DNA from: Candidatus Nomurabacteria bacterium
GTDB lineage: Bacteria > Patescibacteriota > Minisyncoccia > Phycocordibacterales > UBA918
Direction: 5' to 3'
Length of the DNA: 64,000 nucleotides
Assembly (NCBI GenBank): GCA_020632095.1
Contig: JACKGF010000001.1
Location: forward strand, 802,141 to 866,140
The notes below the pieces were generated by a model, which saw only the letters and a list, made by a program, of their open reading frames with translations, searched no databases and was not told where the DNA came from. A program made the position numbers and the translations under genes. Below, one piece after another: positions 2,115-61,671 of this stretch (position 1 is the stretch's first letter; each line of letters starts with the position of its first letter).

Positions 2115-4244
2115 CTACTCGGGTTTGCTTGGTGGTGTCAAACCTCGTTTTTTCGCAAATTCGGGGTCAATTTGTTTAATTGAAAGGCCAATTTTGCCAT
2201 CTTCTAACTTTGAGACTAGAACAGACACCACTTCCCCTTCCTTTAAAATACCATCGACAGTTTCAATTCTGAATGGCGCAATTTCAGAAATATGAATCAA
2301 ACCTTCATTGTATGAATCTAATTTAGCAAAGGCACCAAAGGTGGCTAGACGGGTGATGGTAACATCTAGTTTATCTCCGACTTTGTAAATTTTAGTTAAT
2401 GATTTGACTCTTTCGGCTGCTAGTTCAGCTGTGCCATTTTTGCCAGTAATGAAGACAGTGCCATCATCTTCAATATTGATTTCCTCGACACCTGTGCTGT
2501 CTTTTATTTCTTTAATAGTTTTGCCTCCCCCGCCTATTACTAGCCCTATTTGTTCTGGCAGGATTTGTAATACGATGATTTGTGGTGCACGCGGTGAGAT
2601 TGATTTTCTAGGGTTAGCTATTTCAGCGGTGATAACATCGATTATTTGCAATCTAGCAATACGTGCTTTCTCAAGCGCTTCGCCTAATATATGTAGTGGT
2701 ACCCCATCAACTTTTACATCCATTTGAATAGCTGTTACTCCTTCTGTGGTGCCGGCGACTTTGAAATCCATGTCACCAAATTCATCTTCTGGTCCTTGGA
2801 TATCAGTCAAGAGAGCATATTTGTCACCTGAAATCATAACTCCTGAGGCAATGCCGGCCACTGGTCTTGTGATCGGAACTCCGCCATCCATCAAAGCGAT
2901 TGTTGATCCACAAACTGAACCCATGGAACTCGAACCATTACTGGATAGAGTTTCTGATACCAGACGAATGGTGTATGGAAAATCAGTTTTTAAAGGAATT
3001 ACCGGCACTAAAGCTTTTTCTGCTAAAGCTCCATGTCCAATCATGCGTCGGTTAAACCCTCCTACTCGACCAGTTTCTCCAACTGAGTACGGAGGGAAAT
3101 TATAATGATGGATAAAAGTTTTTTTGCTGTCGGGCTCTTCGATTGTATCTATGACTTGTGATGAGTCAGGACCAGCCAAAGTTAGGGCCGAAAAAATATG
3201 TGTGCCACCACGATAAAAAATACCGGAGCCGTGCAGAGCTGGTGAAATGTTTCCAGCCTGTGCAAACAGTTCACGTACAGCATCCATACTTCGCCCGTCC
3301 GCTCGCTTTCCTTCCTCTAATGCTCCTCGATGTAGCTCAGTGTCAATCATGTCTTCAAAAAAATCACCCGCTATAGCTTCACTTAATTCAGCTTCTTTTA
3401 TAATGGTTAAAAATTCAGACTTTAATTCATAGATATGATTTTTACCAGCACGATTGCTAAAAATTGTTTGGGAAAGTTTTGTCTTAAAATCATTTTCAAA
3501 CAAAACTAATATTTCTTTCGGAGTGGTTCGGTCGGGCTCAGCTTGTTTTTGTTTTCCGATTACGGTCACAATTTCCTCTTGCCAATTTTCTAGTTGTTGA
3601 TGAATCTCAACAGAGGCTTCGAAGGCCGAAAGAATTTCTGATTCTGAAATTTCGTAGGCAGCCGTTTCAATCATGTTGATAGTTTTGTCTTTGCCACAAA
3701 CAAATAGTTCAAAGTCGAGCTTACCTTCTTCTCTCGCTTGATAGGTTGGATTAAAAATTATTTTTTTAGTTTCTTTTTCTCTTCCAATTCTTACAGCTCC
3801 AACCGGTCCGCTCCATGGAATGTCTGAAACTGAAAGTGCAAGTGATGTTCCGATAACTGCTAGGACATCAGGATCATCCTCACCTAGAGCGAGGACTGTG
3901 ACAACAATCTGAATATCTTTTCTTCCATGGTGATTGAAGAGTGGTCGAATAGTACGGTCAACAATTCGCGCTGACAAAACAGATTCGTCGCTTGGCTTAC
4001 CTTCTCGTCTGGTGTAGCGGCTACCAAGAATTCTTCCCGCGGCATAGAATTTTTCTTCGAACTCAACTGATAATGGAAAATAATGTACGTGACTATTTTC
4101 TTTTTCACTCATGACGGCTGTTACTAAAATTACTGTCTCGCCATATTTTAAAAGTACTGAACCATTCGCATGAGCAGTAAGATCACTAAACTCTGCTGTC
4201 AAAGTTTTTCCTGCTAGCTCTAGGGTAAAGGTTTGTTTTTTCAT
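2115..4244 (-). CDS. pnp: polyribonucleotide nucleotidyltransferase (PNPase)
   Basis: 709 aa with two RNase PH domains and C-terminal KH and S1 domains. The N-terminus MKKQTFTLELAGKTLTAEF is typical. Confidence 0.95.
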   Translation of the reverse strand: MKKQTFTLELAGKTLTAEFSDLTAHANGSVLLKYGETVILVTAVMSEKENSHVHYFPLSVEFEEKFYAAGRILGSRYTRREGKPSDESVLSARIVDRTIRPLFNHHGRKDIQIVVTVLALGEDDPDVLAVIGTSLALSVSDIPWSGPVGAVRIGREKETKKIIFNPTYQAREEGKLDFELFVCGKDKTINMIETAAYEISESEILSAFEASVEIHQQLENWQEEIVTVIGKQKQAEPDRTTPKEILVLFENDFKTKLSQTIFSNRAGKNHIYELKSEFLTIIKEAELSEAIAGDFFEDMIDTELHRGALEEGKRADGRSMDAVRELFAQAGNISPALHGSGIFYRGGTHIFSALTLAGPDSSQVIDTIEEPDSKKTFIHHYNFPPYSVGETGRVGGFNRRMIGHGALAEKALVPVIPLKTDFPYTIRLVSETLSSNGSSSMGSVCGSTIALMDGGVPITRPVAGIASGVMISGDKYALLTDIQGPEDEFGDMDFKVAGTTEGVTAIQMDVKVDGVPLHILGEALEKARIARLQIIDVITAEIANPRKSISPRAPQIIVLQILPEQIGLVIGGGGKTIKEIKDSTGVEEINIEDDGTVFITGKNGTAELAAERVKSLTKIYKVGDKLDVTITRLATFGAFAKLDSYNEGLIHISEIAPFRIETVDGILKEGEVVSVLVSKLEDGKIGLSIKQIDPEFAKKRGLTPPSKPE

Positions 4245-5172: not shown

Positions 5173-5439
5173 CTATCTTTTTAGACCTAGTTTCTTGATT
5201 AGTCCCTCGTAAGCAGTCTGACTTTTGCGCTGAAGATATTTCAGGTGCTTGCGCCGGTCGGCTACCATCTGTAGTAATCCACGTCGTGAGTGAAAGTCCT
5301 TCTTATGCTTGCGCAAGTGGTTGGACAATTCTTCAATTTTTCTGGTTAGTAGAGCCACTTGTGCTTCTGGTGATCCAGTGTCGTTGTCGTGTCGACGGGT
5401 ATTTTTTAAGGTGTTCTCAATTATTCGCTTTGATAGCAT
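5173..5439 (-). CDS. rpsO: 30S ribosomal protein S15
   Basis: 88 aa, ...[32 protein letters not shown]... Confidence 0.9.
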
Positions 5440-5621: not shown

Positions 5622-6533
5622 ATGGAACTAGAGGAACTGAAACGTCAATTTTTAGAGTACCTCGAAATCGAGCGAGGGAGGAGTGTTAAGACAGTTGAAA
5701 ATTATGATCGTTACCTCGGACGGTTTTTTAACTTTGCGAAAGTCAAAAAACCGTCCGACTTTACTGAGGAACAAATTCGCGAGTTTCGTTTGTATCTCAA
5801 TCGCCAACCCGGCACCAAAGTTGGCGGCCGAGTGGAGTCAATGAAACGACGTACCCAAAATTATTATTTGATCGCCTTGCGCGCATTTCTTAAATTTTTG
5901 CGTAAGCGCGGAGTTGAGGCATTGTCACCTGAACGAATCGAGTTGGCTAAAGTACCGGAGCGTTCACTCGATTTGATTTCAGCTGCTGAGCTGAAAAGAC
6001 TGATGGCTGCTCCAGATAAAAAAACTCTCGAAGGTAAAAGGGATAGCGCAATTTTAGAATTACTTTTTTCTACTGGTCTGCGTATTTCTGAATTGTGTGG
6101 ATTATCAATTGATGATGTAGATTTAAGTCGAGACGAATTTTCTGTCCGTGGTAAGGGAGAAAAAGTTCGAGTGGTTTTTCTCTCTGACACCGCTAGGAGC
6201 GCGCTCGAGGATTATACTAAAAGTCGTAAAGATTTAGACGACGCTATGTTTGTACGGTTAGGAAGAAAAGTTAATGATGGTGGTGATTTACGTTTGTCTC
6301 CACGAGCGGTCCAAAGATTATTAAAACGTTATGCTGCTGAAGCTGGAATCACTCGCAAGGTAACACCACATGTCATTCGTCACAGCTTTGCCACCGACTT
6401 GCTTAGTAACGGCGCTGACCTACGTTCGGTTCAAGCTTTGCTCGGTCATGCCAATATAGGCACCACTCAAGTTTATACTCACGTGACAGATAAACATTTA
6501 AGAGATATTCATAAAAAATTTCATGGCAAATAA
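5622..6533 (+). CDS. tyrosine recombinase, XerC/XerD family
   Basis: It has an N-terminal SAM-like domain and a C-terminal catalytic HVIRHSFATDLL...LGHANIGTTQVYTHV with the R-H-R-Y residues. Confidence 0.85.
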   Translation: MELEELKRQFLEYLEIERGRSVKTVENYDRYLGRFFNFAKVKKPSDFTEEQIREFRLYLNRQPGTKVGGRVESMKRRTQNYYLIALRAFLKFLRKRGVEALSPERIELAKVPERSLDLISAAELKRLMAAPDKKTLEGKRDSAILELLFSTGLRISELCGLSIDDVDLSRDEFSVRGKGEKVRVVFLSDTARSALEDYTKSRKDLDDAMFVRLGRKVNDGGDLRLSPRAVQRLLKRYAAEAGITRKVTPHVIRHSFATDLLSNGADLRSVQALLGHANIGTTQVYTHVTDKHLRDIHKKFHGK

Positions 6534-9597: not shown

Positions 9598-10544
9598 TAT
9601 TCAGCGTATTTTGCTAGTACAGCCTTTACTCCAGCTAGGTTCTTGGTCCACTCAGTGCTTTTGTGATTAGTTAGCAAGACACTGATAGCTGGAATATTTT
9701 TCTTTGCCATCCAATTCACCATGTCTCCATTGATAGTATAAGCGTCAAATTTTGCATCAGCTGGATAGCCAGCTGCTGTAGCAAAGGCGGCAGCCATTTC
9801 AACAGAGTCTTTACTTGGAGTTGTGTCACAAGCTGACGGATAAACTTTTCCTTCTGCACTAAACCAGACTACGGCGGCGGTTGGTTTGTAGGTTTCTACG
9901 TAATTTTTAATAGCTTCGGCTTCTGGTTCAGAGAAGGCAGTTGAGCCACCACTGACTGTTTCGTTCTGCCATTTACTTGTAGCGCTCCAATCACAATCAA
10001 AGTTTCGGTTCAGGTCTACTTTGTTCGCATTAAACCTGCCGGCTGTTCGAATATCATCACTAACTGCTAAAGCATCAGATTCCTCAAATCTTCCAGTGGT
10101 ACCAACTGTCGCATCCAATCCGTCTGGGTTAGCAACTGGAATAATAGTAACTGTCACATCATCAGGGACAGCATCAGGGTTAGTATCTAGGTAATCAATT
10201 AGTTCGTAGGCTAATAGGCTAGTGTTCCATGAGTAGCCTCCATGGATACCACCAATGAATAATAGTTCGGTATCACCGCTACCAAAGTGATAGGCAGTTA
10301 TATCATTACCATCAACTGAGGAACCAATTACACTTTTGTCTCCACGAGCTTTGACAGTTTCTTCAATTTGTTCAGTATCGCTGGTGGTCGAGTTGTCTTC
10401 AATAACGGTTGAAGTGTCGGTACCATCTCCACTAGGAGTTTCAACCACCATCACTGTTGCATCGTTGGATTTACTCAACATAAAACCAACTGCACCAATT
10501 AGAATTAAGGCTAAAATAACAATCGTAATATTTTTTGTATTCAT
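9597..10544 (-). CDS. M14-like paralog 2, probably a pseudo-enzyme
   Basis: Same architecture and motifs as paralog 1 (GGIHGGYSW, NPDGLDA, VDLNRNF). The positions of the Glu and the later His zinc ligands are replaced (YSW, VWFSA). Confidence 0.45.
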   Translation of the reverse strand: MNTKNITIVILALILIGAVGFMLSKSNDATVMVVETPSGDGTDTSTVIEDNSTTSDTEQIEETVKARGDKSVIGSSVDGNDITAYHFGSGDTELLFIGGIHGGYSWNTSLLAYELIDYLDTNPDAVPDDVTVTIIPVANPDGLDATVGTTGRFEESDALAVSDDIRTAGRFNANKVDLNRNFDCDWSATSKWQNETVSGGSTAFSEPEAEAIKNYVETYKPTAAVVWFSAEGKVYPSACDTTPSKDSVEMAAAFATAAGYPADAKFDAYTINGDMVNWMAKKNIPAISVLLTNHKSTEWTKNLAGVKAVLAKYAE

Positions 10545-17346: not shown

Positions 17347-18819
17347 TTATAATACCTTATGCTCTCTCGCGATGTCCTTTAGGGCTTCAGCTTCTTCTTC
17401 CGCTTGGCGACGTTTACCTGCCTCCGCCATTGTTTCTAGCTCTACTTCGGGCAATTTAAGTAATTCCAACGCCCTTTGCTCCATATACTCCTCAGTATTC
17501 TTGCTGGCATCATCCAAAGCTTCTTCCAACAGTGCGTGCAGTAGATATCCCAGCTTTTTACCAGGCTTTTCCCCAGAGATTTCCATAATTTTATCCCCAG
17601 AGATTTTAAGCATCTTAACTGAGATTGGGTCGCGTAAAGCTTCGTCCACCATCGCTTTGTATTTACGGAAGCGAAAAGGCTGTTCTTTTGGTCGACCGGT
17701 ACCGATACGGTCACAAACTCTCAGGTTTAATAAATTTTCTATCTGGTCCTCCCCTATTCTGGTAATGGTTCTCCGTACCGCTGAAAGTGTAATTTCGTCT
17801 GGGTCTGAGAAAAACATGTGCCATCGCACTAGGTTCACCACTTCTTCAATCATTTCGCGTGGCAGCTTCAGTCTCTCTAGAATAGATTTAGTCATCCGCG
17901 CGCCCACTACTTCATGACCAAAGAATGTGTACTTCTTATTCTTTCCACCAACTCTTCTGGTGGCTGGCTTTGCGATATCGTGAAATAAGGCGGCCAAACG
18001 TAGATTGAGAGAAAATTCTTTGTCGGCGGCTGCCTGCATGGTGCGTAGTAGGTGTTCATAGACATCAAATGCGTGGATTCCACCTTGTTCGCAACCAATT
18101 GAATCAGCAAATTCAGGGATAAATTGCTTCAGTAGACCTAACTTTTCTAGGAAGATAACCCCTTGCATTGGGGTAGAAGAATTAACGATCCTCAAAAACT
18201 CGGCCGCAATACGTTCAATAGAAATACGGCTCAATTGTTCACTGTTCTTTAAGATAGCAGCCATGGTCTTCCCTTCGATCATAAAGTCCAGTTCAGCCGC
18301 CAAGCGAACGGCCCGCATCATGCGTAAGGCATCTTCCGCAAAACGTTCGTCCGAGTCACCGACTGTTTGTAGTCGTTTTGCTCTGAGGTCGCTAATTCCC
18401 TCAAACAAATCAATTAATTCCGCTGTCGAGATACGATAGGCTAAGGCGTTGATGGTAAAATCACGACGCTTCAGGTCTTCTTCCAGTGAAACACCGAAAG
18501 TAACGTTGTCTGGGCGGCGAGCATCGCTGTATCCACTTTCGGAACGATAAGGAGTGACCTCAATTATCTTTAGTCGTTCATCTTCTGACTCAGTCTTGAT
18601 ACCAATAGTGCCAAAGTCATTGTTCGCATAATGCTCAGGAAAAAGCGCTTGAATATCACTCGGGTGTGCATTGGTGGTAATATCCCAATCCTTCGGAGTC
18701 TTACCTAAAATTAAGTCACGAGTACAACCGCCCACCAAATAGGCTTCAAAACCCTTACTTTCAAGCATATTTGCAACATGAAACACTTCGTCCGGAATAT
18801 CGGTAGTTTTGATAGACAT
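17347..18819 (-). CDS. cca: CCA-adding tRNA nucleotidyltransferase with an HD domain
   Basis: GGCTRDLILGKTPKDWDITT is the PolyA_pol head. It also has the HD motif (HDIAK) and a C-terminal extension. Confidence 0.85.
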   Translation of the reverse strand: MSIKTTDIPDEVFHVANMLESKGFEAYLVGGCTRDLILGKTPKDWDITTNAHPSDIQALFPEHYANNDFGTIGIKTESEDERLKIIEVTPYRSESGYSDARRPDNVTFGVSLEEDLKRRDFTINALAYRISTAELIDLFEGISDLRAKRLQTVGDSDERFAEDALRMMRAVRLAAELDFMIEGKTMAAILKNSEQLSRISIERIAAEFLRIVNSSTPMQGVIFLEKLGLLKQFIPEFADSIGCEQGGIHAFDVYEHLLRTMQAAADKEFSLNLRLAALFHDIAKPATRRVGGKNKKYTFFGHEVVGARMTKSILERLKLPREMIEEVVNLVRWHMFFSDPDEITLSAVRRTITRIGEDQIENLLNLRVCDRIGTGRPKEQPFRFRKYKAMVDEALRDPISVKMLKISGDKIMEISGEKPGKKLGYLLHALLEEALDDASKNTEEYMEQRALELLKLPEVELETMAEAGKRRQAEEEAEALKDIAREHKVL

Positions 18820-18915
18820 GACATTATTCTAGCAGAAATTACTGTTTGGGGTATGTTTATCTATAATTAGCGGTTGAATATTACCGAAAACAATAGTACA
18901 CTGCGACATACTAAT

Positions 18916-18988
18916 GCACCCGTGGCTTAATGGATATAGCACTTGTCTTCGGAACAAGGGGTTGGGGGTTCGAATCCCTCCGGGTGCA
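18916..18988 (+). tRNA. tRNA-Arg (anticodon TCG)
   Basis: The acceptor stem is GCACCCG/CGGGTGC. The anticodon stem is CTTGT/ACAAG with loop CTTCGGA. The T-loop is GTTCGAATC. A hairpin (18997-19020) follows. Confidence 0.85.
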
Positions 18989-19473
18989 CATCTTGACAAT
19001 ACACTATAAATAGTGTATTGTTTGTTATTCCCAATCCCCCACCACCAGCAGAAGCACCTTACATATCAAATAATAAGACAATTTCTCAGAGGAGAGAGTC
19101 TTGATTACTAACCTACAAAGGAAGGTTCAAGTTAAACAATCACTGACAACCCGCAAGGGTTTGAAACAGGCGACTGACTCTCAACTCCGAATTAGTCGCC
19201 CGTTTTCGTTGAAGGAAGCGCGGGAACGAATCAGTGTAATAGATATGTCGTTCTCCCACTTCTCTCAATGAGGAGAGAGTATAGAAGAATGTTTTTTGAA
19301 AATTGGATAACGACTACGTAAACCTTCTCCCAGTGAAGTTTCTAAAATATAATTTGGGGATTTCACTGGGAGAAGGCATAGTGCCGACTTCCCAGAATTC
19401 CAAGCGCCTGCCCGCCTGGTTCACCTAAAAACCGAACCGCGCAGGCAGAGCGCGGAAAAGAAAAGGAGAAAAA

Positions 19474-20886
19474 ATGGGAAGCATTAGATTCATAATCGAC
19501 GGTAGTAAACTCGAGGCGGACTCCGTCTATGGGTATCCGTATAGCCTGAGTATGATCCAAAGGGGTGTCGATTCTCACGATCAGGAGCTCGGTGTCATCG
19601 AGGAGAAACAGGTCCCGGACTACCTAATAAGTGTCTTCCGAGCCATGCAGGTCGCGATCCCGCCGGAGAACATATATACCGGCGCAATCAGCAATCAAGC
19701 TCCAAGCGCGATGGTCGATACTATGTTCGGTGTCGGACGTCGTAGCTCCGCGACCTTCACTTTCCTCCCGACCGAGCTCACGGCTCATGGTCACCGCGCT
19801 TGGGTCAAGCATAAGTACTGGACGGAAGGTGGGGGCGAGTGTTGGATTGGCTCCCTGATAGAGCACAATGCCTACGTCGCCGGTTTCTGGCTCGACGAGC
19901 GGGCCGCCCAGCAGTGGGTGGAGGACCTTACCAAGCACCCGCTCGGTGAGGTCCTGCTCAAGAGCACAACACCCTACGCCGTTGTGTTCCAGGATCACGT
20001 CAATCCGGCCGAGTGGAAAGGTGTGAGGATCAATTATTTCTCGTACTGCCTGCTTTCTGAGGATGACAACTACCTCCTGAACACGATCGGTGGAGGATGT
20101 CCAAAGGGCGTTTACCGTTCATTCGATGTTTCCTTCGAGCAGTGGAACGGAACGGTCTACGTTCACGCGCCCGAGCTCTGGCAGTTGGAGCGAGACAACA
20201 AACGCGACGTCTTCCCACTTAGCCCGTCCTACCTCATTCTTCGTGCCCGCAACGGTGCCCAGGAAGTGCTTCTCACAGGTACCGACCAAGACAAGAACGG
20301 CTGGACGAAATACGTCTATGAGCTTCCTAGGCGTAAGTCCTACAACCCTCTCGACGCCTCGGGCAATTGGGCCACCTTCTGGCCCAGTTACAATGCTTGG
20401 GAGGAATTCGCCTTCGCACAACACATCAAGGCGCGTCAGGTGAGTACCCTCCACAGCGACGACTGGGGCGACGAGGATGACCCCTTCTTCATTCCACTCA
20501 CACAAGAGTACGCGAAGAAGGCCTGGGCCGCGGGCGCTACGAAGCTCCCGGCCGAGAGCATCAAGCTCAAGGTCAGCCAGTTCAAGGCGGGATACGGAGA
20601 GGGAGATCGATTAATCAACGATGAGCAAAACCCTCTGAATGGTGCCGTTATCTACGACGGATTCGACTTTGTCTCGGGTTTAGTGGGCCGGATCGTGGAT
20701 TGGATCTGGCTCAAGAAGGAATCGGCCTGCGTGTTTCTGCCTATGGGTTTCGTAGGCTGGATTCAGTGTCAGAAGGGGCTGGCAATCTCCCATGCCACGG
20801 TGGTTCGTAAGCTCGGCGACAAGTCGCGCGATCCGACTGAAATAACAGTATTTTCGGATGGTAGTTGCATCTACCCCACCACCTAG
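19474..20886 (+). CDS. hypothetical protein (470 aa), compositionally foreign (about 58-60% GC)
   Basis: Long ORF with GC3-rich codons. I recognise no motif. Confidence 0.55.
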   Translation: MGSIRFIIDGSKLEADSVYGYPYSLSMIQRGVDSHDQELGVIEEKQVPDYLISVFRAMQVAIPPENIYTGAISNQAPSAMVDTMFGVGRRSSATFTFLPTELTAHGHRAWVKHKYWTEGGGECWIGSLIEHNAYVAGFWLDERAAQQWVEDLTKHPLGEVLLKSTTPYAVVFQDHVNPAEWKGVRINYFSYCLLSEDDNYLLNTIGGGCPKGVYRSFDVSFEQWNGTVYVHAPELWQLERDNKRDVFPLSPSYLILRARNGAQEVLLTGTDQDKNGWTKYVYELPRRKSYNPLDASGNWATFWPSYNAWEEFAFAQHIKARQVSTLHSDDWGDEDDPFFIPLTQEYAKKAWAAGATKLPAESIKLKVSQFKAGYGEGDRLINDEQNPLNGAVIYDGFDFVSGLVGRIVDWIWLKKESACVFLPMGFVGWIQCQKGLAISHATVVRKLGDKSRDPTEITVFSDGSCIYPTT

Positions 20887-21463
20887 TCGGATTTCAAACG
20901 CACCGTGTCGCGTACAGTTCTTTCACCGAGTTGAGGACACGGTCTCAGCTCGCTACATCGGAGCAAAGATTGACTAGCCGTCACTACTAGTGGAAAAGCC
21001 ACCTGGAGGACGGCTTTTTCTATATTTATACAAGACAAAAGTGTCGAACCAACTCCTGCTCAGCGCACAAAGGTAAAAGAAAAACACGATGCAAATTGCA
21101 TCATGCTTTTCTTTTAGAAAGTAACCTGCGTCACTCTGGGCCTTTGAGCAAGGCGAAGAACTGTTTTCTCCCGCTCCTAGGGAGAAAAAAGTCGAGCCGG
21201 ATGAGTCAGTCTGGGAGACTGATGCAAGACTTTGTCAGCTTTTTTTTGAGGAACGAAGAGAAATCGCGACAAGGTGAGCAGAATTCGTAGAATTCGAGAG
21301 TGCTAAGTAAAATTTGCATTTAGTGCGGAATCATATTAATACTGACCATTAATGCAATCAGTGCTAATGTGTTTAAATGTGGTTTATATGGTCGAGTACA
21401 TGTCAATGACAAAACAAATAAACCAATATATATTAATTACCTGTTCTTTAGGAGGAGTGCCCC

Positions 21464-22003
21464 ATGCAACTTGTCGAACTACCTATATCTGGAAGAGCTT
21501 CCCTTATTCAAGTTCAAGAGATTCTTGCTGAATTTGGTCAGCTGATTCCATGGCTAATGAAAATTGGTGGTCTGTGCTATTCGACCAATCGACGGTATTT
21601 CGAGGAGCAGTTACACCAGAGGATAGGGTGTAAACCGGGTTCCATTTCCCTGTATCAACTCGTAAGTTCTGGTCGTGAGAGAGACTACGTAGGAGGATTA
21701 TTACGCTTTGCAGACGTCCCTGAGAAGTTTTTAGATTCTCGTCTTCAAATGCTCATGGCACAACTCGTTACCCAAGGTGCCATGTACATATCTTGTCTTC
21801 AAGTGCACGGAGTAAAACGTGGCTTGGGATATGGCTATGGCGCAGAAATAGTTCTTAAGGCAATTAAGCGTATCCAGCAAGAGTGGCCGATTGTTTGGGG
21901 AGTTTGTGAACCTAGATTGCTCAAGTGGTATGTTTCATTGGGAGCAGAGGTTCTGGACCCAGGGATTAACCGTGACCATCTGGCCTTAATAGTATGGAGA
22001 TGA
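21464..22003 (+). CDS. hypothetical protein, possible GNAT-like acyltransferase
   Basis: VKRGLGYGYGAEIV resembles GNAT motif A. The call is weak. Confidence 0.35.
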   Translation: MQLVELPISGRASLIQVQEILAEFGQLIPWLMKIGGLCYSTNRRYFEEQLHQRIGCKPGSISLYQLVSSGRERDYVGGLLRFADVPEKFLDSRLQMLMAQLVTQGAMYISCLQVHGVKRGLGYGYGAEIVLKAIKRIQQEWPIVWGVCEPRLLKWYVSLGAEVLDPGINRDHLALIVWR

Positions 22004-22025
22004 GAACCCCGAGCATCTCGTTGCT

Positions 22026-22060
22026 CTAGCCCGCCAATTCTGTTGGCGGGCTAGCTTTTT
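22026..22060 (+). terminator. intrinsic terminator
   Basis: ctagcccgccaattctgttggcgggctagcttttt. Confidence 0.65.
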
Positions 22061-22080
22061 ACCCACAGGCATATTATTTT

Positions 22081-22380
22081 GTGGAAGTATTTGTTAAGCT
22101 ACGTTATATGGAACTATCAGAACGCTACATCCAAAAGCTTGAAAATGAAGGGTTTGCTTCGGTATATGAGGGGCAGGACGCGGCTGGTAAGGTCTATTCG
22201 GAACGGATTTCCAAAGGAAAGCTATCAATCTTGGTGACCGATGGTTCCCTCACTTTCACCATGTCTGGACGAGAGAAAGTTGTGGCGGCTGGTCAACGCT
22301 TCGATATACCGCCATCAACAACATACTCACAAGTCGCTGGTCCCCTGGGAGCGATTTATATTGTGGGTGAAATGGACTAA
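22081..22380 (+). CDS. small hypothetical protein (cupin-like?)
   Basis: 99-aa ORF. The start codon is uncertain. Confidence 0.3.
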   Translation: MEVFVKLRYMELSERYIQKLENEGFASVYEGQDAAGKVYSERISKGKLSILVTDGSLTFTMSGREKVVAAGQRFDIPPSTTYSQVAGPLGAIYIVGEMD

Positions 22381-22384
22381 GGGT

Positions 22385-23095
22385 TTAAATATCCTTATAA
22401 AACCGTATTTTTTCGTCAGGCTCGAAGCTGTTTTTTAATATTTCTTGAGTATTTGGCAGGTCACTTTTTTCGTAGAAATCTTCCGCATCATTGTGTGATC
22501 GGCCGCCAGCCATATGTCGGGCGACCACATTGGCTCGCATGGTTGATAAATCACCAACCACCGCTAGTTGGTAGCTACACAAATCACGAATTTTGGCCCA
22601 TTCGCGGTTTTTTCTGAGTAGCCATTGCCCTTCAAGTAGGAGTAGAGTATTGCTGTCGTGTATGGAAATAGCGTCTGGTATCGGATTATGAGTAGTTCTG
22701 GAATACGTTGGGAAGGAAACGTCTTCTCCGGCGGTGAAGGATTGTAGTTTTTTGGTTAGAAGCGGAAGATTGTAGGTATCGTATCTACCTTTCACCGCTC
22801 GCAGATTCATTCCATCTAGAACATCATTTGTATAATGAAAAGCATCCAGGCCGACAGGCACATATTCGAAGGGTAAATTGCGAGCTTTAAAGAAATGACC
22901 TACTAAAGCCACAGTCACAGATTTTCCCGACCCAGCTGGTCCACTTAGTCCAAATACTTGCCTGCCCTTTCCTTTATCATTATATATCTCGCTAATTTTA
23001 TCGACCAAACTCTCATAGTATTTAATTTGTTCGTCTGAAAGTGCTGACAAATCTACAGCTTGCCCCGCCACTTCTATTGTTGATGGGATTTTCAT
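22385..23095 (-). CDS. P-loop nucleoside/nucleotide kinase-like protein (PRK/uridine-kinase-like)
   Basis: Walker A is FGLSGPAGSGKS. The size and layout resemble PRK-family kinases. Confidence 0.45.
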   Translation of the reverse strand: MKIPSTIEVAGQAVDLSALSDEQIKYYESLVDKISEIYNDKGKGRQVFGLSGPAGSGKSVTVALVGHFFKARNLPFEYVPVGLDAFHYTNDVLDGMNLRAVKGRYDTYNLPLLTKKLQSFTAGEDVSFPTYSRTTHNPIPDAISIHDSNTLLLLEGQWLLRKNREWAKIRDLCSYQLAVVGDLSTMRANVVARHMAGGRSHNDAEDFYEKSDLPNTQEILKNSFEPDEKIRFYKDI

Positions 23096-23252
23096 ACCTA
23101 CATTCTACCAGTTGTTGCAAACAATCCGAATTCAATACAAAGAGAAAGAAAAGCACATAGGTCAAAAACTAACTTAGCCCACTCAATATTGTGCTGGTAT
23201 TGTTTACAACTCAAATCGAACTTATGTAATTAGTATATAATATACGAACAGT

Positions 23253-23912
23253 ATGGTACGGAATCAAGTGAATTATGAACAAGCTATCAATCTTCGGAAA
23301 CGTGGTTTTACTTTAGCTGAGATAGCTAAAGTGTGCGATATATCTAAGTCCACCGCTTCATTATGGTTGAAAAATAAGGCTTTTTCGGAGCTGGTAACTA
23401 AACAAAATATAAAACGCGCTGGCCAAGAAAACGCCAAAAGATTGAGTCTAATCAGCAAAGCGCGCGGTGGTGAACGCAAGCAAAGATACTTAGACGCACA
23501 AACATCAGCTAAGACAGAGTTTGCCCACTACAAGGCCAATCCTGCCTTTGTAGCGGGTGTAATGGCCTATGTGATGTCGGGAGACATGAGTGATGAGCAT
23601 ACTATCAGACTCAGTCATACTTCCCTGTCAGCCCACCGTATGTTTATCAGCTTTGCTACTAAGTTCCTGGGAGTAGAAAAAAACCGGATTCATTTATGGC
23701 TACACCTCTATGAAGGTGCATCAGAAGAAAGAATGATGAAAAAATGGTCTAAAATAACCACTATTCCCTTCTCTCAGTTCTATAAAAATCAATTTGTTAA
23801 TAAAACCAGCCGCAAACCATTGCACTCTGGCGTCGGAAATACTATAATCGGCAGCACCTATCATAAACAAAAGCTAAAAGCCTGGGTGCATTTAGCGGAA
23901 AAAGAATGGTAG
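23253..23912 (+). CDS. HTH-domain protein, unknown function
   Basis: It has an N-terminal helix-turn-helix (RGFTLAEIAKVCDISKSTASLWLK). Confidence 0.45.
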   Translation: MVRNQVNYEQAINLRKRGFTLAEIAKVCDISKSTASLWLKNKAFSELVTKQNIKRAGQENAKRLSLISKARGGERKQRYLDAQTSAKTEFAHYKANPAFVAGVMAYVMSGDMSDEHTIRLSHTSLSAHRMFISFATKFLGVEKNRIHLWLHLYEGASEERMMKKWSKITTIPFSQFYKNQFVNKTSRKPLHSGVGNTIIGSTYHKQKLKAWVHLAEKEW

Positions 23913-23925
23913 AATAGACATATAA

Positions 23926-23996
23926 GCGGCCATGGTTAAGTGGTATAACGGGTCCTTGCCAAGGATCAGTCGGGGTTTCGATTACCCCTGGCCGCA
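23926..23996 (+). tRNA. tRNA-Gly (anticodon GCC)
   Basis: The acceptor stem is GCGGCCA/TGGCCGC. The anticodon loop is TTGCCAA. The T-arm is GGGGT-TTCGATT-ACCCC. A hairpin at 24003-24022 follows. Confidence 0.85.
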
Positions 23997-24022
23997 CAAA
24001 TATAAAGACCCGCAATGGTCTT

Positions 24023-24186
24023 TAGGCGTCTGTGGCCAGGGAGCAAGCAAACTGCTTTGCTTGCGGGTAATCGAAACCGCCGGAGTGATGTATTTTGCTC
24101 TTTTCCTAGAGCAAAATACGAGCGAGGTGTGACCCGTGGCACTTATGAGCAAAGCGAATTTGTGACCGTCAGGTTTCGATAATTTT
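24023..24186 (+). other. tRNA-linked structured element A (homologous to element B)
   Basis: It shares blocks with 25961-26129: gcaaactgctttgc inside a 9-bp covarying stem, aatcgaa.cgccggag.gatgt, cgagcgaggtgtgacccgtggcactt, gagcaaagcgaa and gtgaccgtcagg. It ends with ggtttcgat, which echoes the tRNA-Gly T-arm. Confidence 0.4.
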
Positions 24187-24412
24187 TAGGGTGATGTCCG
24201 TACATAATAGACCTAGTAAAGATGAGCGTGTGCGAATGTAAGTAGACAATTAGTTTCTATAGAGTGCATAACTGGGGATAAGGAGTGGATAGGTGGATAA
24301 AGGACAAAAAGGGTTATAAAAGGCACTTGTCCTTTATATATTCTTGGTATAATAAACAAAATCATGTTTCATTTCACATGAAACGGGAAATATTTGTAAA
24401 TACTAAGTTTCA

Positions 24413-24827
24413 TATGAAACAAACTGATAAACAAGGCAGAAAAAACGAAATTGGAGCCTACGGGGAAGAAATTGCTATAAATTACCTTAAAAAGCTAGGT
24501 TTTACTATTTTAGATACAAATTATCTTAAAAAATGGGGTGAAATTGACATTGTGGCACGTGAAACAGACAAAATTCACTTTATTGAGGTAAAAACAGTTT
24601 CATATGAAACAAAGATTGACTTAAAAAATGCTATTTCACGTGGCACCTGGCGCCCAGAAGAAAACGTACACGTTTCTAAGATACAAAGACTGAACCGAGC
24701 GATTGAAAGTTGGATTATGGAAAATAACTATAATGATGAGTGGGAAATCGACGTTATAGCGGTGCGAATGGTTCCACGTGAAAAATACGCTACCGTTAAA
24801 TACATAGAAAGTGTCGTTTTTGGTTGA
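24413..24827 (+). CDS. YraN-family (UPF0102) PD-(D/E)xK endonuclease-like protein
   Basis: GAYGEEIAINYLKKLGFTILDTNY...GEIDIVARETDKIHFIEVKTV matches YraN. The likely start is the ATG at 24413 inside a palindrome. The listed ORF (24285) begins earlier. Confidence 0.55.
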
Positions 24828-24845
24828 TTGTGATAAGATTTTTGT

Positions 24846-25076
24846 ATGAGTGATTTAAAACTTGGTAAGTACAAGCATTACAAAGGTAATTTCTATGAAG
24901 TTATTGGTTGTGCCAGACATAGTGAGACCTTAGAAGAGTTAGTGGTTTATAAAGCGCTGTACATATCAAATGATTTCGGGAAAGACGCATTGTGGGTCAG
25001 ACCAAAAGCTATGTTTATGGAAAGCATTGAATTGAAGGGCGTAATGGTTCCTAGATTTGAGTACATCCGTCAATAA
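24846..25076 (+). CDS. DUF1653-domain protein
   Basis: KYKHYKGNFYEVIG...VVYKALY is typical of DUF1653. Confidence 0.55.
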   Translation: MSDLKLGKYKHYKGNFYEVIGCARHSETLEELVVYKALYISNDFGKDALWVRPKAMFMESIELKGVMVPRFEYIRQ

Positions 25077-25846: not shown

Positions 25847-25917
25847 CGGGGTGTAGCATAGTGGTAGTGTACTCGGTTTGGGACCGAGCGGTCCGGGTTC
25901 GATTCCCGGCTCCCCGA
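25847..25917 (+). tRNA. tRNA-Pro (anticodon TGG)
   Basis: The anticodon stem is CTCGG/CCGAG with loop TTTGGGA. The T-arm is CCGGG-TTCGATT-CCCGG. The acceptor stem is CGGGGTG/CTCCCCG with one T-T mismatch. A 19-bp-arm palindrome (25918-25960) follows. Confidence 0.8.
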
Positions 25918-25960
25918 CAAAATTATAAAATCCTAGCCTTTGGCTAGGATTTTATAATTT

Positions 25961-26129
25961 GAGAGGGGAGAAGAGGCAAACTGCTTTGCCTCTGTCCGGA
26001 ATCGAACGCCGGAGCGATGTGAGCCTGCGAACGAGTGAGGTGTGTCACGCGGCACTTGCTAGTTTGTGAGCAAAGCGAAACAAACTAGCTTAGTGACCGT
26101 CAGGACGATTCCCGGCTCCCCGACAAAAT
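25961..26129 (+). other. tRNA-linked structured element B, ending in an exact 24-bp copy of the tRNA-Pro 3' end
   Basis: It shares blocks with element A. The stem agaggcaaa-ctgc-tttgcctct covaries with gcaagcaaa-ctgc-tttgcttgc in A. Positions 26106-26129 (cgattcccggctccccgacaaaat) equal 25900-25923. Confidence 0.45.
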
Positions 26130-30585: not shown

Positions 30586-31569
30586 ATGAAAGGCATTGAA
30601 AATTTTGTTAGTCACATTGGTTCAGAATTAGAGATTTGGCTTAGGTATAGAGAAAAGGAACTACCCAAAGTCTCTGTTTTTGGAGGTGCTGTAAAGTGTG
30701 AGGCTTCACCCGATATGTGTGAGGGGGTAACTGAGCCACGTCAATCAGTTGTTGAGTCTGTCGGCATCTTGAGAGAGATGTTGAGGCAGATTGGTAAAAC
30801 AAATGTGATTTTAACTTCAAGGAGACCGGCATATCTGGTAAATGATAGTGAAGACTATTGGAGTAATGCCGAACGCTACAATCAGTTAAGGGAGAAGTTA
30901 GCAGAGGAAGCTGTTCCCAGTTTTGCACACTTGATAGATGCTATGGTTCACAATTGCTCATTTCAGTTAAGTATGAGCGGTTTCTTTGATCCACGTGTTG
31001 CCGGTGTATTCCTGATTAACATCTTCAATAATATGTTTCCGTACTTCGCTCAAGTAATCCATAGGGAGGTTGGACAAGGGTATGGACATTTGGCGGTGTG
31101 GCAAAAGTTTGCTGGTGCTGGACGTCTTCCTGATCCTAACCGCTGGCCTGCTGATTTTGATGCTATGGCCGAGTTCATTAGTAGGATACCTCGCATCTTG
31201 AGTGCTGACGGAGGAGTGGTGCCAGCTGGTCAAATGATGAGTGTTGATTGTCCGCTGGATCTCAGTACCTTGTGGTGGCATGTGAGATTCAAAATCTCAC
31301 CAGCAGGCGTGCCGTATATTGAGTTTCGTGGTATGCCTTCAATGTCTCTTGAACATTGTCAAAAGTTTGGCCAGATGTTGGTCGACGCTGTCAATGTGTT
31401 GTTGACTTGGTTTTACGGCGCGAACAAAGGTCGTCCAGTTAGCACTCTAAGAGAAGCTCGTCCAGCGTTTGAGTTTTTGGCGGATTGTTTCCGTGGAACT
31501 GCTTATCAAGGGTATTTTCCAGATAGGCCGCAAACTGAGGAGGAGTGGAGGGGGTCTATTCTCAAGTGA
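30586..31569 (+). CDS. hypothetical protein (327 aa), GC elevated (about 48-50%)
   Basis: I recognise no family. It is co-oriented with the downstream amidotransferase. Confidence 0.45.
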   Translation: MKGIENFVSHIGSELEIWLRYREKELPKVSVFGGAVKCEASPDMCEGVTEPRQSVVESVGILREMLRQIGKTNVILTSRRPAYLVNDSEDYWSNAERYNQLREKLAEEAVPSFAHLIDAMVHNCSFQLSMSGFFDPRVAGVFLINIFNNMFPYFAQVIHREVGQGYGHLAVWQKFAGAGRLPDPNRWPADFDAMAEFISRIPRILSADGGVVPAGQMMSVDCPLDLSTLWWHVRFKISPAGVPYIEFRGMPSMSLEHCQKFGQMLVDAVNVLLTWFYGANKGRPVSTLREARPAFEFLADCFRGTAYQGYFPDRPQTEEEWRGSILK

Positions 31570-50196: not shown

Positions 50197-51204
50197 TTCC
50201 CCCAGACACCTTTGAAGTAGGACAGCTATAAAGTAAATTAGCTGTCTATGAAAACATACAGACACATACAATTTGAGGAGCGTTTCGTAATTGAAAAGTT
50301 ATTGAACGCAGGGAGTTTGATCAGAGAAATAGCCATCTTCCTCAAACGTAGTCCCAACACCATCAGTCAGGAACTAAAGAAGAATAGGGTTAATGGAGTC
50401 TATGACGCCAAGCAAGCCCAACTAAAAGTGAACCAGCGTCGTTGGCGCGCTAAACGTCAGTGTCTCAAGGTGGCAATGGATAGTTTCCTAGTAAGCTTCG
50501 TAGAAGACAAACTAGAGCAGAAGTGGACCCCTAAACAAATCAGTGGACATCTCAAACGAGAGCTCGGTGTTACCTGTTCCGCCAAAGCTATATACAAGTT
50601 CATAGAAAGTCGTGGTCTGGAATATCGACTATTCTGGCGTTGGAACAAAAAGAAAAGTGGTCCGAAACGGACCACACATAAACCAGCTGATGATGGCCGT
50701 AAATATATAGATATTCGTCCTCTTGGTAGCCATGAGCTAGGTCACTATGAACTAGACTTCATTGTCTCTAAGTACAGTCCATACGTACTTCTAGTGGCTA
50801 CTGACCGTTTAACTAAATACAGCTTGGTACGTCAGTTACCCAATAGAAAACGCCACACAATCAGTGCAGCGTTCTCTAAAATGTTTAGCAATATTATAGT
50901 CAAGAGTATCACCACCGACAACGACATTGCATTCCGTCACTGGACGGAACTAGAACAAATCATACAGGCTCCAATCTATTTCTGCCACCCTTATCATTCT
51001 TGGGAGAAGGGACTGGTAGAGAATACTAATCGTTGGATTAGATGCTTTGTTCCAAAGCGGAGAGACATTGCGTCTGTTACTCAAGAAGAATTGAATGAGA
51101 TTCATACCTTCTTGAATGACCGACCGAAAGAGTGTATTGATTTTAGGATTTCGAGTGAGTATTATTATGAGCAATCTGTCCTACTTGAGGGGTAGCTGGA
51201 GGTT
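50197..51204 (+). mobile_element. IS30-family insertion sequence, copy 1 (about 1.0 kb)
   Basis: It is identical to 60664..61671 apart from 2-3 substitutions. It has imperfect terminal inverted repeats (..aagtaggacag..) and encodes a DDE transposase. Confidence 0.8.
50248..51195 (+). CDS. IS30-family DDE transposase
   Basis: 315 aa with an N-terminal HTH and a C-terminal integrase-core region (HPYHSWEKGLVEN). Confidence 0.85.
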   Translation: MKTYRHIQFEERFVIEKLLNAGSLIREIAIFLKRSPNTISQELKKNRVNGVYDAKQAQLKVNQRRWRAKRQCLKVAMDSFLVSFVEDKLEQKWTPKQISGHLKRELGVTCSAKAIYKFIESRGLEYRLFWRWNKKKSGPKRTTHKPADDGRKYIDIRPLGSHELGHYELDFIVSKYSPYVLLVATDRLTKYSLVRQLPNRKRHTISAAFSKMFSNIIVKSITTDNDIAFRHWTELEQIIQAPIYFCHPYHSWEKGLVENTNRWIRCFVPKRRDIASVTQEELNEIHTFLNDRPKECIDFRISSEYYYEQSVLLEG

Positions 51205-60663: not shown

Positions 60664-61671
60664 TCCCCCCAGACACCTTTGAAGTAGGACAGCTATAAAG
60701 TAAATTAGCTGTCTATGAAAACATACAGACACATACAATTTGAGGAGCGTTTCGTAATTGAAAAGTTATTGAACGCAGGGAGTTTGATCAGAGAAATAGC
60801 CATCTTCCTCAAACGTAGTCCCAACACCATCAGTCAGGAACTAAAGAAGAATAGGGTTAATGGAGTCTATGACGCCAAGCAAGCCCAACTAAAAGTAAGT
60901 CAACGTCGTTGGCGGGCTAAACGTCAGTGTCTCAAGGTGGCAATGGATAGTTTCCTAGTGAGCTTCGTAGAAGACAAACTAGAGCAGAAGTGGACCCCTA
61001 AACAAATCAGTGGACATCTCAAACGAGAGCTCGGTGTTACCTGTTCCGCCAAAGCTATATACAAGTTCATAGAAAGTCGTGGTCTGGAATATCGACTATT
61101 CTGGCGTTGGAACAAAAAGAAAAGTGGTCCGAAACGGACCACACATAAACCAGCTGATGATGGCCGTAAATATATAGATATTCGTCCTCTTGGTAGCCAT
61201 GAGCTAGGTCACTATGAACTAGACTTCATTGTCTCTAAGTACAGTCCATACGTACTTCTAGTGGCTACTGACCGTTTAACTAAATACAGCTTGGTACGTC
61301 AGTTACCCAATAGAAAACGCCACACAATCAGTGCAGCGTTCTCTAAAATGTTTAGCAATATTATAGTCAAGAGTATCACCACCGACAACGACATTGCATT
61401 CCGTCACTGGACGGAACTAGAACAAATCATACAGGCTCCAATCTATTTCTGCCACCCTTATCATTCTTGGGAGAAGGGACTGGTAGAGAATACTAATCGT
61501 TGGATTAGATGCTTTGTTCCAAAGCGGAGAGACATTGCGTCTGTTACTCAAGAAGAATTGAATGAGATTCATGCCTTCTTGAATGACCGACCGAAAGAGT
61601 GTATTGATTTTAGGATTTCGAGTGAGTATTATTATGAGCAATCTGTCCTACTTGAGGGGTAGCTGGAGGTT
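60664..61671 (+). mobile_element. IS30-family insertion sequence, copy 2
   Basis: It is identical to copy 1 except for a few substitutions. Confidence 0.8.
60715..61662 (+). CDS. IS30-family DDE transposase (copy 2)
   Basis: It differs from the copy-1 protein at 2 residues (N/S and T/A). Confidence 0.85.
   Translation: MKTYRHIQFEERFVIEKLLNAGSLIREIAIFLKRSPNTISQELKKNRVNGVYDAKQAQLKVSQRRWRAKRQCLKVAMDSFLVSFVEDKLEQKWTPKQISGHLKRELGVTCSAKAIYKFIESRGLEYRLFWRWNKKKSGPKRTTHKPADDGRKYIDIRPLGSHELGHYELDFIVSKYSPYVLLVATDRLTKYSLVRQLPNRKRHTISAAFSKMFSNIIVKSITTDNDIAFRHWTELEQIIQAPIYFCHPYHSWEKGLVENTNRWIRCFVPKRRDIASVTQEELNEIHAFLNDRPKECIDFRISSEYYYEQSVLLEG

Follow-up and report, generated by a model that had tools for sequence, protein, structure and literature searches.

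The T-loop and 3' end of transfer RNA (tRNA) genes are a classical target of integrative elements. In Escherichia coli, the 178-bp repeats at tyrT, known with RtT RNA, are units that follow the tRNA gene and each carry the last 19 nucleotides (nt) of the tRNA. Integrative mobile elements exploiting Xer (IMEX) use the host XerCD recombinase at dif. The locus described here lies directly 3' of a tRNA-Arg(TCG) gene in a 64,000-nt stretch of a Patescibacteria chromosome (contig JACKGF010000001.1), called the window below. The original prediction had described the interval 18989-23925, between this tRNA and a tRNA-Gly, as a compositionally foreign, horizontally acquired island whose likely cargo was a large orphan protein. 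Analysis of the locus narrows this picture to the segment 18,990-21,042, which is probably a horizontally acquired single-gene cassette. Its foreign composition, its absence from all 80 related loci compared and the decay of its gene toward host GC content support acquisition of this segment directly 3' of tRNA-Arg; the rest of the interval does not share that history. The orphan protein, encoded by the open reading frame (ORF) ORF470, is the only gene in the insert, and its description as the cargo therefore holds.

The host is an uncultivated Paceibacteria/Kaiserbacteria-like Patescibacterium. Elsewhere, the window encodes PNPase, RNase Y, NusA, pyruvate kinase, trigger factor and a DUF5667 protein.

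A narrow compositional anomaly beside tRNA-Arg

The mean guanine-plus-cytosine (GC) content of the window is ~42%. In 300-nt sliding windows, GC exceeds 0.52 only at ~19,400-20,900 (0.52-0.61, peak 0.61), is 0.43 again by 21,050-21,350 and remains host-like, at 0.35-0.47, across 21,100-23,925. The deviating composition of a tRNA-targeted island is thus real in both GC and tetranucleotide terms, but it is confined to ~19,400-21,050, a core of ~1.6 kb within the 4.9-kb interval first proposed.

Both compositional analyses suggested with the original prediction, sliding-window GC and tetranucleotide usage, find a significant deviation. ORF470 has a GC content of 55.8%, below the 58-60% initially given; only single 300-nt windows reach 61%. 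By codon position its GC is 0.57/0.42/0.69, and the third-position value (GC3) of 0.69 compares with 0.388±0.060 (maximum 0.50) in 45 other ORFs of the window (z = +5.0). In tetranucleotide distance from the whole window, the 1.5-kb stretch 19501-21000 ranks largest (z 5.6). The GC3 of the following genes is ordinary, with z values of 0.0 for ORF179, -0.4 for the kinase gene and +0.3 for the helix-turn-helix (HTH) gene.

Borders of the insert

The locus was compared with 80 loci retrieved through the CCA-adding enzyme gene (17347-18819, minus strand), turned to the orientation of the window and searched by tblastn with the window proteins; individual loci from this and other searches are cited as L plus a number. 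Nearly all 80 are labelled Patescibacteria (Paceibacteria, Kaiserbacteria, Parcubacteria, 'Saccharibacteria'), and their CCA enzymes are 59-82% identical to the window protein at the amino acid (aa) level. They share a conserved order of exonuclease-family gene, CCA gene, tRNA-Arg(TCG), ORF99, in some cases a kinase gene, HTH219, tRNA-Gly(GCC) and YraN. ORF470 has no tblastn match in any of the 80, so the comparison across relatives proposed at the outset shows that it is not conserved at this position. The distance from the CCA gene to ORF99 is 220-430 bp in the nearest relatives (L012, L013, L016, L019) versus 3,262 bp in the window.

The insert begins at 18990, one nucleotide past the end of tRNA-Arg at 18989, on the 3' side of the tRNA gene. 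A blastn comparison of 18700-22500 with the relatives finds nothing similar between 19,000 and 21,053. Beyond that gap, window 21054-21200 matches the sequence directly 3' of tRNA-Arg in L030, L016, L019, L032, L058, L062 and L029. In L013, L029 and L032, the alignment opens at window 21054 opposite tRNA positions 59-73 and runs into shared downstream sequence. Because this homologous alignment begins inside the tRNA-Arg of the relatives, 21043-21068 is read as a decayed tRNA-Arg 3' end; it has 11 of 15 matches to one allelic form of that end, type A, and is recognisable only through homology with the relatives. The native tRNA-Arg trailer that follows is displaced by 2 kb relative to its position in the relatives. 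The right junction has independent support, since contig L007 of a different sample matches window 19326-21275 at 98% identity and covers the ORF, this junction and native trailer sequence. The insert therefore occupies ~18,990-21,042, about 2.06 kb with a single gene, between tRNA-Arg(TCG) and the displaced native trailer (Table 1).

The tRNA gene itself also differs from that of close relatives. The window carries a 'type B' allele, 89-91% identical to the tRNA-Arg of the distant relatives L060 and L084; the nearest relatives carry the divergent type-A allele (~74-76% local identity), whose 3' end the remnant at 21043-21068 resembles. The type-B allele may itself have arrived with the insert. 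At the position of the hairpin that follows tRNA-Arg in the window, relatives have a different hairpin.

A self-contained expression unit

The 5' part of the insert contains the features reported from the first reading: a 12-bp hairpin directly 3' of tRNA-Arg, hairpin-rich non-coding DNA (484 nt without a credible ORF, 18990-19473, originally put at about 480 bp) that folds far beyond shuffled sequences, and a perfect 15-nt inverted repeat, CCTTCTCCCAGTGAA (19323-19337) and TTCACTGGGAGAAGG (19362-19376), whose arms extend to 27 nt. The 470-aa ORF that follows is likewise confirmed. Judged by its sequence signals, the cassette is a self-contained expression unit: the hairpin bears a promoter-like site, the ~450-nt leader is structured and includes a strong Shine-Dalgarno sequence, and the ORF is followed by a terminator of its own.

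The 455-nt leader of ORF470 gives a predicted RNA fold z of -7.6 against shuffled sequence, and leaders of homologues in L091, L005 and L008 give -5.5, -5.0 and -6.0. By blastn, the 5' leaders of family genes show no conserved sequence, and the ORF470 leader has no homology in the 80 relatives. In a control set of 38 other 285-nt upstream regions of the window, the mean z is -2.5±3.4, and 4 of the 38 are as extreme as the ORF470 leader or more so. A specific regulatory leader RNA for ORF470 is not claimed, since several unrelated upstream regions of the window fold as strongly. Strongly structured 285-nt upstream regions precede the genes starting at 30586 (plus strand, z -9.5), 59958 (NusA, minus strand, z -11.4) and 4244 (PNPase, minus strand, z -8.3); their predicted structure is comparable to or stronger than that of the ORF470 leader.

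The ORF470 protein family

ORF470 is a real gene under purifying selection. This follows from its coding-type distribution of GC over codon positions, its full-length homologues, a ratio of nonsynonymous to synonymous substitution rates (dN/dS) of 0.245 against the L005 homologue, a confidently predicted structure, and the presence of a Shine-Dalgarno sequence and a terminator. The homologues keep the full-length ORF at 23-68% aa identity. Five close members share an invariant MGSIRF N-terminus. In the alignment of 16 members, conservation extends to numerous Trp, Gly and Pro positions and to T100, R108 and E456, with D449, R445 and N260 nearly conserved.

The family is very rare. A search of 5.8 billion proteins with ORF470 returns five clusters, one 99% identical and four 41-64% identical over the full length. 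An exhaustive HMMER scan of 1.84 billion representatives yields 24 clusters (at 50% identity) at E<=0.001, and a second, word-indexed profile search adds no further members. The family is absent from 185,579 species-representative genomes, from IMG/VR and from phage and plasmid record collections. As first noted, ORF470 has no recognisable domains: it matches nothing in Pfam, PHROGs, PADLOC or NCBIfam, and nothing in the PDB by phmmer sequence search or by profile search.

An AlphaFold2 model built on the 16-sequence alignment is mostly beta, with a mean predicted local distance difference test score (pLDDT) of 82.4 and a predicted template modelling score (pTM) of 0.67, and it has no fold match to PDB or BFVD structures. 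The hidden Markov model and structure searches proposed for this protein accordingly bring up no relative in sequence or fold outside its own family. ORF470 is acidic, contains 3.6% Trp and has no hydrophobic segment, and the product is predicted to be a soluble, acidic, tryptophan-rich, mostly beta protein free of a membrane segment or signal peptide. It might be an accessory protein of the conflict or niche type (e.g. in defence, anti-defence or host interaction) carried as cargo, which is offered as a guess. A role for ORF470 as an enzyme that mobilises the element itself is improbable, because an insert of the same layout in L054, described below, carries unrelated genes.

No neighbouring gene is conserved across the family loci. 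The sole shared neighbour is a TrmB-family regulator divergently upstream of the family gene in L009 (3-293, minus strand) and L010 (6056-6910, minus strand). In L001 (1-13827, NCBI GCA_040960315.1, 62% GC), the homologue stands in a run of at least nine same-strand ORFs lacking Pfam or PHROG matches, in which gene GC is ~0.70 and spacers are ~0.55. Repeated intergenic modules separate these ORFs: a 113-nt repeat stands at 4032-4144 and again at 5214-5326, and the motif TCG..CTCACCTCGCAG has a further copy immediately 5' of the ORF470 homologue, at 6151-6167. The L001 layout looks like a cassette array.

Foreign origin and amelioration

In all eight loci with flanks, the family gene is richer in GC than the rest of its contig. 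The excess is +0.14 in the window, +0.32 in L005 (GC3 0.95, flanks ~36% GC), +0.17 in L091 (0.68 vs 0.51, with sharp steps), +0.14 in L009, +0.10 in L010, +0.08 in both L008 and L001 and +0.07 in L096. When synonymous third-position changes are polarised with L001 as outgroup, the window lineage shows 37 changes from GC to AT and 0 from AT to GC, and the L005 lineage shows 5 and 7. From this 37:0 bias, ORF470 in the window is taken to be ameliorating from a very GC-rich ancestor toward its host.

Three family loci have a tRNA gene within ~1.2 kb of the family gene: the window, with tRNA-Arg 484 nt 5'; L091, with tRNA-Val 575 nt 5' on the same strand; and L010, with tRNA-Ser at ~1.2 kb. No repeat of the tRNA-Val 3' end is found in L091.

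Proposed entry at the tRNA-Arg flank

The tRNA-Arg flank is a recombination hot spot in the clade, as judged from direct copies of tRNA 3' ends downstream of the genes. Near-perfect direct copies of the last 16 nt of the tRNA lie 115-170 nt downstream of 11 of 66 tRNA-Arg genes; for tRNAs in general, such a copy occurs within 450 nt downstream in 48 of 201 cases, against 0 of 201 in the upstream control. In L054 (2873-4384, minus in locus coordinates), a 1.2-kb insert in the tRNA-Arg trailer holds two orphan ORFs of 233 and 124 aa that have no Pfam match. It is flanked by a 28-nt direct repeat, AATTAATCTAGCCACGAGAGTGACCGA, ending in GTGACCGA, and beyond it stands a tRNA 3'-end copy that is intact. 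The inserts of the window and L054 share one grammar, namely tRNA, hairpin, payload and tRNA 3'-end copy, which appears to recur at other tRNAs of the clade.

In a plausible course of events, recombination at the 3' part of the tRNA-Arg gene, or inside that part, brought in the foreign DNA. The recombinase would have been supplied in trans, or an integrase gene would have been lost afterwards, because the insert carries none. The order in the window, with tRNA, new hairpin, payload, old tRNA 3' end and old hairpin, fits recombination in the T-loop and 3' part of the gene. The cassette would now be fixed and immobile.

Structured tRNA trailers across the clade

Many tRNAs in the window and its relatives are followed by a hairpin, then by a 95-200-nt element that opens with an inverted copy of the T-loop and the 3' strand of the T-stem, and finally by a terminal direct copy of the tRNA 3' end. 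The inverted copy lies 50-76 nt downstream in 47 of 199 tRNAs, versus 0 of 199 upstream.

These trailers fall into two classes. The short class is a three-way junction in which 92% of cells are paired, compared with 70% in shuffles and 35-49% when the partners are slid, and 20 of 31 pairs have compensatory changes. Its covariance model, R1, finds 58 copies at E below ~1e-4; 51 of them have a same-strand tRNA (Arg, Gly, Pro, Leu) no more than 700 nt upstream, and 29 end in the cognate tRNA's own 3' end. The seed for the long class came from window 25961-26129, downstream of tRNA-Pro, a locus with a perfect 24-nt repeat (25900-25923 and 26106-26129). It numbers 73 copies, 69 of which lie within 500 nt 3' of a same-strand tRNA against a chance expectation of ~4%, and 20 of its 23 consensus pairs covary. 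Together, the two classes amount to ~130 copies in 1.3 Mb, with ends matched to the cognate tRNA.

Trailers occur in the window at 21069-21306, 23998-24184 and 25919-26129, in relatives among L011-L090, and in L010 at ~10336-10478. The native tRNA-Arg trailer of the window is a composite of a hairpin (21069-21121), a module resembling the long class and a short-class three-way-junction element (21222-21306; R1 38.7 bits, E 1e-8). For neither class does Rfam give a match at E<=1, as searched in window 18000-25000 and four relatives. In viral contigs, pattern matches stay at chance level and the covariance model scores none. A hammerhead or other self-cleaving ribozyme was considered for the three-way junction and rejected, as the core motifs and any Rfam match are absent. 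The literature yielded no description of these trailers; papers on tRNA group I introns in Patescibacteria concern the anticodon loop instead.

Weighing the alternatives

Several observations weigh against an acquired cassette at 18,990-21,042. The insert contains no integrase or other recombinase, and ORF470 has no recombinase signature in Pfam, PHROGs or NCBIfam. The only tyrosine recombinase of the window is a XerC/D-like gene (5622-6533, with Phage_integrase and N-terminal SAM-like domains) 13 kb away. No exact or near-exact repeat of the present tRNA-Arg 3' end was found in the window: local alignment of that end does no better than shuffles, with its best matches at the tRNA-Gly 3' end and tRNA-Gly's own trailer, and the downstream direct repeat originally suggested as a check is represented only by the decayed copy, with none intact. 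The left junction between tRNA and leader is covered by no second contig, and the GC of the 484-nt leader is near that of the host, at 0.42-0.46. The GC excess of the family persists on a contig of 61% GC and is possibly a property of the gene rather than of repeated transfer. Even the closest relatives share only ~81% identity with the window in the CCA enzyme, too little to date or orient the event.

Some of these points would suit an old, vertically inherited ORF470 that was lost in the sampled relatives, with a GC content intrinsic to the gene through codon or mRNA selection or GC-biased gene conversion. The family gene is indeed richer in GC than its contig in every one of the eight contexts, and the site shows signs of frequent recombination. 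This history is nevertheless improbable: it must account for absence from all 80 relatives and from the species-representative genomes, for an extremely patchy distribution over 24 clusters, for one-way GC-to-AT decay in the window lineage while the sister holds a GC3 of 0.95, and for a displaced native trailer and a tRNA 3' remnant that mark an insertion. Far less probable is a single genomic island of five cargo genes filling 18989-23925 between tRNA-Arg and tRNA-Gly. Two tRNA genes do bracket the interval, and their spacer ranges from ~150 bp to >5 kb in the clade, which suggests a long-run variable region. Synteny refutes the idea, since ORF99, the kinase gene and HTH219 stand in the same order by the CCA gene in dozens of relatives and are therefore ancestral chromosome and not cargo. 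These genes, whose order with tRNA-Gly is conserved across the clade, are also host-like in GC and GC3 (z -0.4 to +0.3), and the native tRNA-Arg trailer lies between them and ORF470. An assembly artefact, in which a GC-rich fragment of another organism was joined into the contig, is just as hard to credit. The assembly is metagenomic, the compositional step is sharp and the close copies sit on short contigs. Against this, L007 spans the ORF, right junction and native trailer in another sample, independent assemblies (L005, L009, L010, L091) also show a GC-rich gene in AT-rich flanks, and the GC3 of ORF470 is intermediate, as expected after residence in the host. The possibility that the GC-rich block is a large structured non-coding RNA with a spurious ORF is negligible. 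GC-rich blocks in AT-rich genomes are often structured RNAs, and this one contains several long alternative-frame ORFs; however, the concentration of GC at the third codon position and a dN/dS below 1 refute it, and in the homologues the ORF stays full-length and many Trp, Gly and Pro residues are invariant. The protein fold is also predicted with confidence, and Rfam has no match.

A further proposal refines the acquired-cassette reading rather than replacing it. Here, the trailers would act in an undescribed system directed at tRNAs, either as attC-like recombination sites or as guide-like RNAs, and ORF470 would be a cassette captured by it. All inserts follow one grammar, both trailer ends match the cognate tRNA (Arg, Gly, Pro, Leu, Ser), and L035 and L084 have tandem trailer arrays; the L054 cargo sits inside a trailer between repeats ending in GTGACCGA, and L001 is a same-strand array of orphan ORFs with repeated 113-nt modules. 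Capture of this kind is unlikely, though less so than the histories weighed above: no dedicated recombinase was identified, just two cargo-bearing cases were found (the window and L054), and no trailer was found in viral contigs or beside the L091 homologue. It is equally conceivable that the trailers are tRNA-like RNAs transcribed together with the tRNA, or scars left by classical integrations. A wider formulation is similarly doubtful, in which the tRNA-Arg flank would be one site of an undescribed, clade-wide Patescibacteria system, its trailers serving as recombination sites or guide-like RNAs of cassette capture or as processed tRNA-mimic RNAs, and ORF470 with its leader would be one captured cargo from a highly mobile, GC-rich orphan family. 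Acquisition of a single-gene cassette remains the preferred account of 18,990-21,042.

Neighbouring genes

The genes between the native trailer and tRNA-Gly belong to the host background (Table 1). ORF179, outside the GC-rich insert, has a GC3 of 0.389, a good Shine-Dalgarno sequence and host-like codon composition. It has no tblastn match in the 80 related loci, no Pfam, NCBIfam or PDB match and no homologue among 5.8 billion proteins; its description as GNAT-like is unsupported, as no acetyltransferase profile or structure match was obtained. ORF99 was called cupin-like, and weak matches do exist, but all are sub-threshold (Cupin_2 E 0.087, 13 bits against a cut-off of 27.2; PDB cupin 2pfw E 0.29). 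The other two assignments hold: the P-loop kinase-like protein matches the PRK family (29.7 bits; PRK09270-type E 2e-37), and the HTH protein matches HTH_23 (31.9 bits). In synteny with the window, ORF99 is found in ~35 loci, the kinase gene in L016, L019 and L035, and HTH219 in most loci. The orientation of tRNA-Arg(TCG) with respect to the CCA gene is reversed in many relatives (L016-L020, L022, L023, L028, L029 and others). Elsewhere in the window, 50248-51195 and 60715-61662 each hold a 315-aa ORF for an IS30-like transposase with HTH_38 and rve domains; the two are 10 kb apart in the same orientation.

Table 1. Features of the insert beside tRNA-Arg and of the interval up to tRNA-Gly, in window coordinates
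Feature	Position	Strand	Basis or remark
tRNA-Arg(TCG), left border of insert	18916..18989	+	ARAGORN; Rfam tRNA 68.5 bits
Post-tRNA hairpin, 12 bp, terminator-like	18995..19022	+	Relatives have a different hairpin here
Promoter-like TTGACA-17-TATTGT	18993-19021		Overlaps post-tRNA hairpin
Structured ORF470 leader	19023..19473	+	Contains inverted repeat and Shine-Dalgarno sequence
Shine-Dalgarno sequence of ORF470, AAGGAG	19463-19468	+	5 nt ahead of ATG
ORF470, orphan-family gene, GC-rich core of insert	19474..20886	+	ORF call
ORF470 intrinsic-terminator-like hairpin and T-run, AAAAGCCACCTGGAGGACGGCTTTTT	20994..21019	+	Read from sequence
Decayed tRNA-Arg 3'-end copy, GTCGAACCAACTCCTGCTCAGCGCAC	21043..21068	+	Right border of insert; attR-like remnant
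Native tRNA-Arg trailer	21069..21306	+	Homology to relatives; covariance model; fold z -4.8
ORF179, lineage-specific ORFan	21464..22003	+	Host composition; outside GC-rich insert
ORF99, native conserved small protein, weakly cupin-like	22081..22380	+	41-83% identical copies at same position in ~35 relatives
Nucleoside/nucleotide-kinase-family gene, native	22385..23095	-	Syntenic in L016, L019, L035
HTH219, HTH_23 DNA-binding protein, native	23253..23912	+	Between tRNA-Arg and tRNA-Gly in most relatives
tRNA-Gly(GCC), native, clade-wide partner of tRNA-Arg	23926..23997	+	ARAGORN, Rfam

Significance

The locus offers a clean example of gene gain in a reduced Patescibacteria genome, with borders mapped by synteny and a directional amelioration that can be measured. 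Its cargo represents a very rare protein family, and the fold predicted for it with confidence is without known relatives. Always richer in GC than its host and repeatedly found beside tRNA genes, the family is marked as a candidate mobile accessory gene. Mapping the borders also exposed the most novel material, namely widespread structured elements that trail tRNA genes, are matched to their own tRNA and are absent from Rfam. If these trailers are recombination sites or tRNA-mimic RNAs, they bear on gene acquisition or tRNA processing in minimal genomes.

Comparison with known systems

The window insert exemplifies an everyday form of gene transfer, in which a short piece of foreign DNA comes to lie next to a tRNA gene. 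Like tRNA-targeted islands and integrative elements of the tyrosine-integrase type, it directly adjoins the 3' side of a tRNA and is foreign in composition; relatives lack it, a remnant of a tRNA 3' end stands at its distal border, and the same tRNA in relatives carries intact direct repeats from T-loop to 3' end. Unlike them, it has no integrase, comprises only 2 kb and one gene, and has a decayed distal repeat; moreover, its closest relatives have another allele over the whole tRNA, and not just in the 3' part.

As a single ORF with its own regulatory signals and terminator, deviant GC and a recurrent site, the insert also recalls phage morons and integron cassettes, and the L001 homologue in its same-strand orphan-ORF array with repeated modules adds to this likeness. 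In contrast to morons, it is not inside a prophage, as there are no PHROG matches. It differs from integron cassettes in having no IntI/attI platform, no integrase within 13 kb and a CCA-adding enzyme gene as its neighbour. No attC site with a GTTRRRY core is seen, a statement made with no dedicated attC model run; the junction sequence is (G)TTCGAG or CGATTCC, and the trailers fold into three-way junctions. IMEX share with the inserts the lack of an integrase and flanks made of short chromosomal-site copies, and a XerC/D-like gene is the sole tyrosine recombinase in the window. The site here is a tRNA 3' end, however, not dif, and nothing links the Xer-like protein to the inserts.

The trailers come closest to the tyrT repeats and RtT RNA, since they too follow a tRNA gene, close with a copy of its 3' end and sometimes stand in tandem. 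They lack an Rfam RtT match and, unlike the tyrT repeats, open with an inverted copy of the T-loop and T-stem, form covarying three-way junctions and accompany many different tRNAs in a different phylum.

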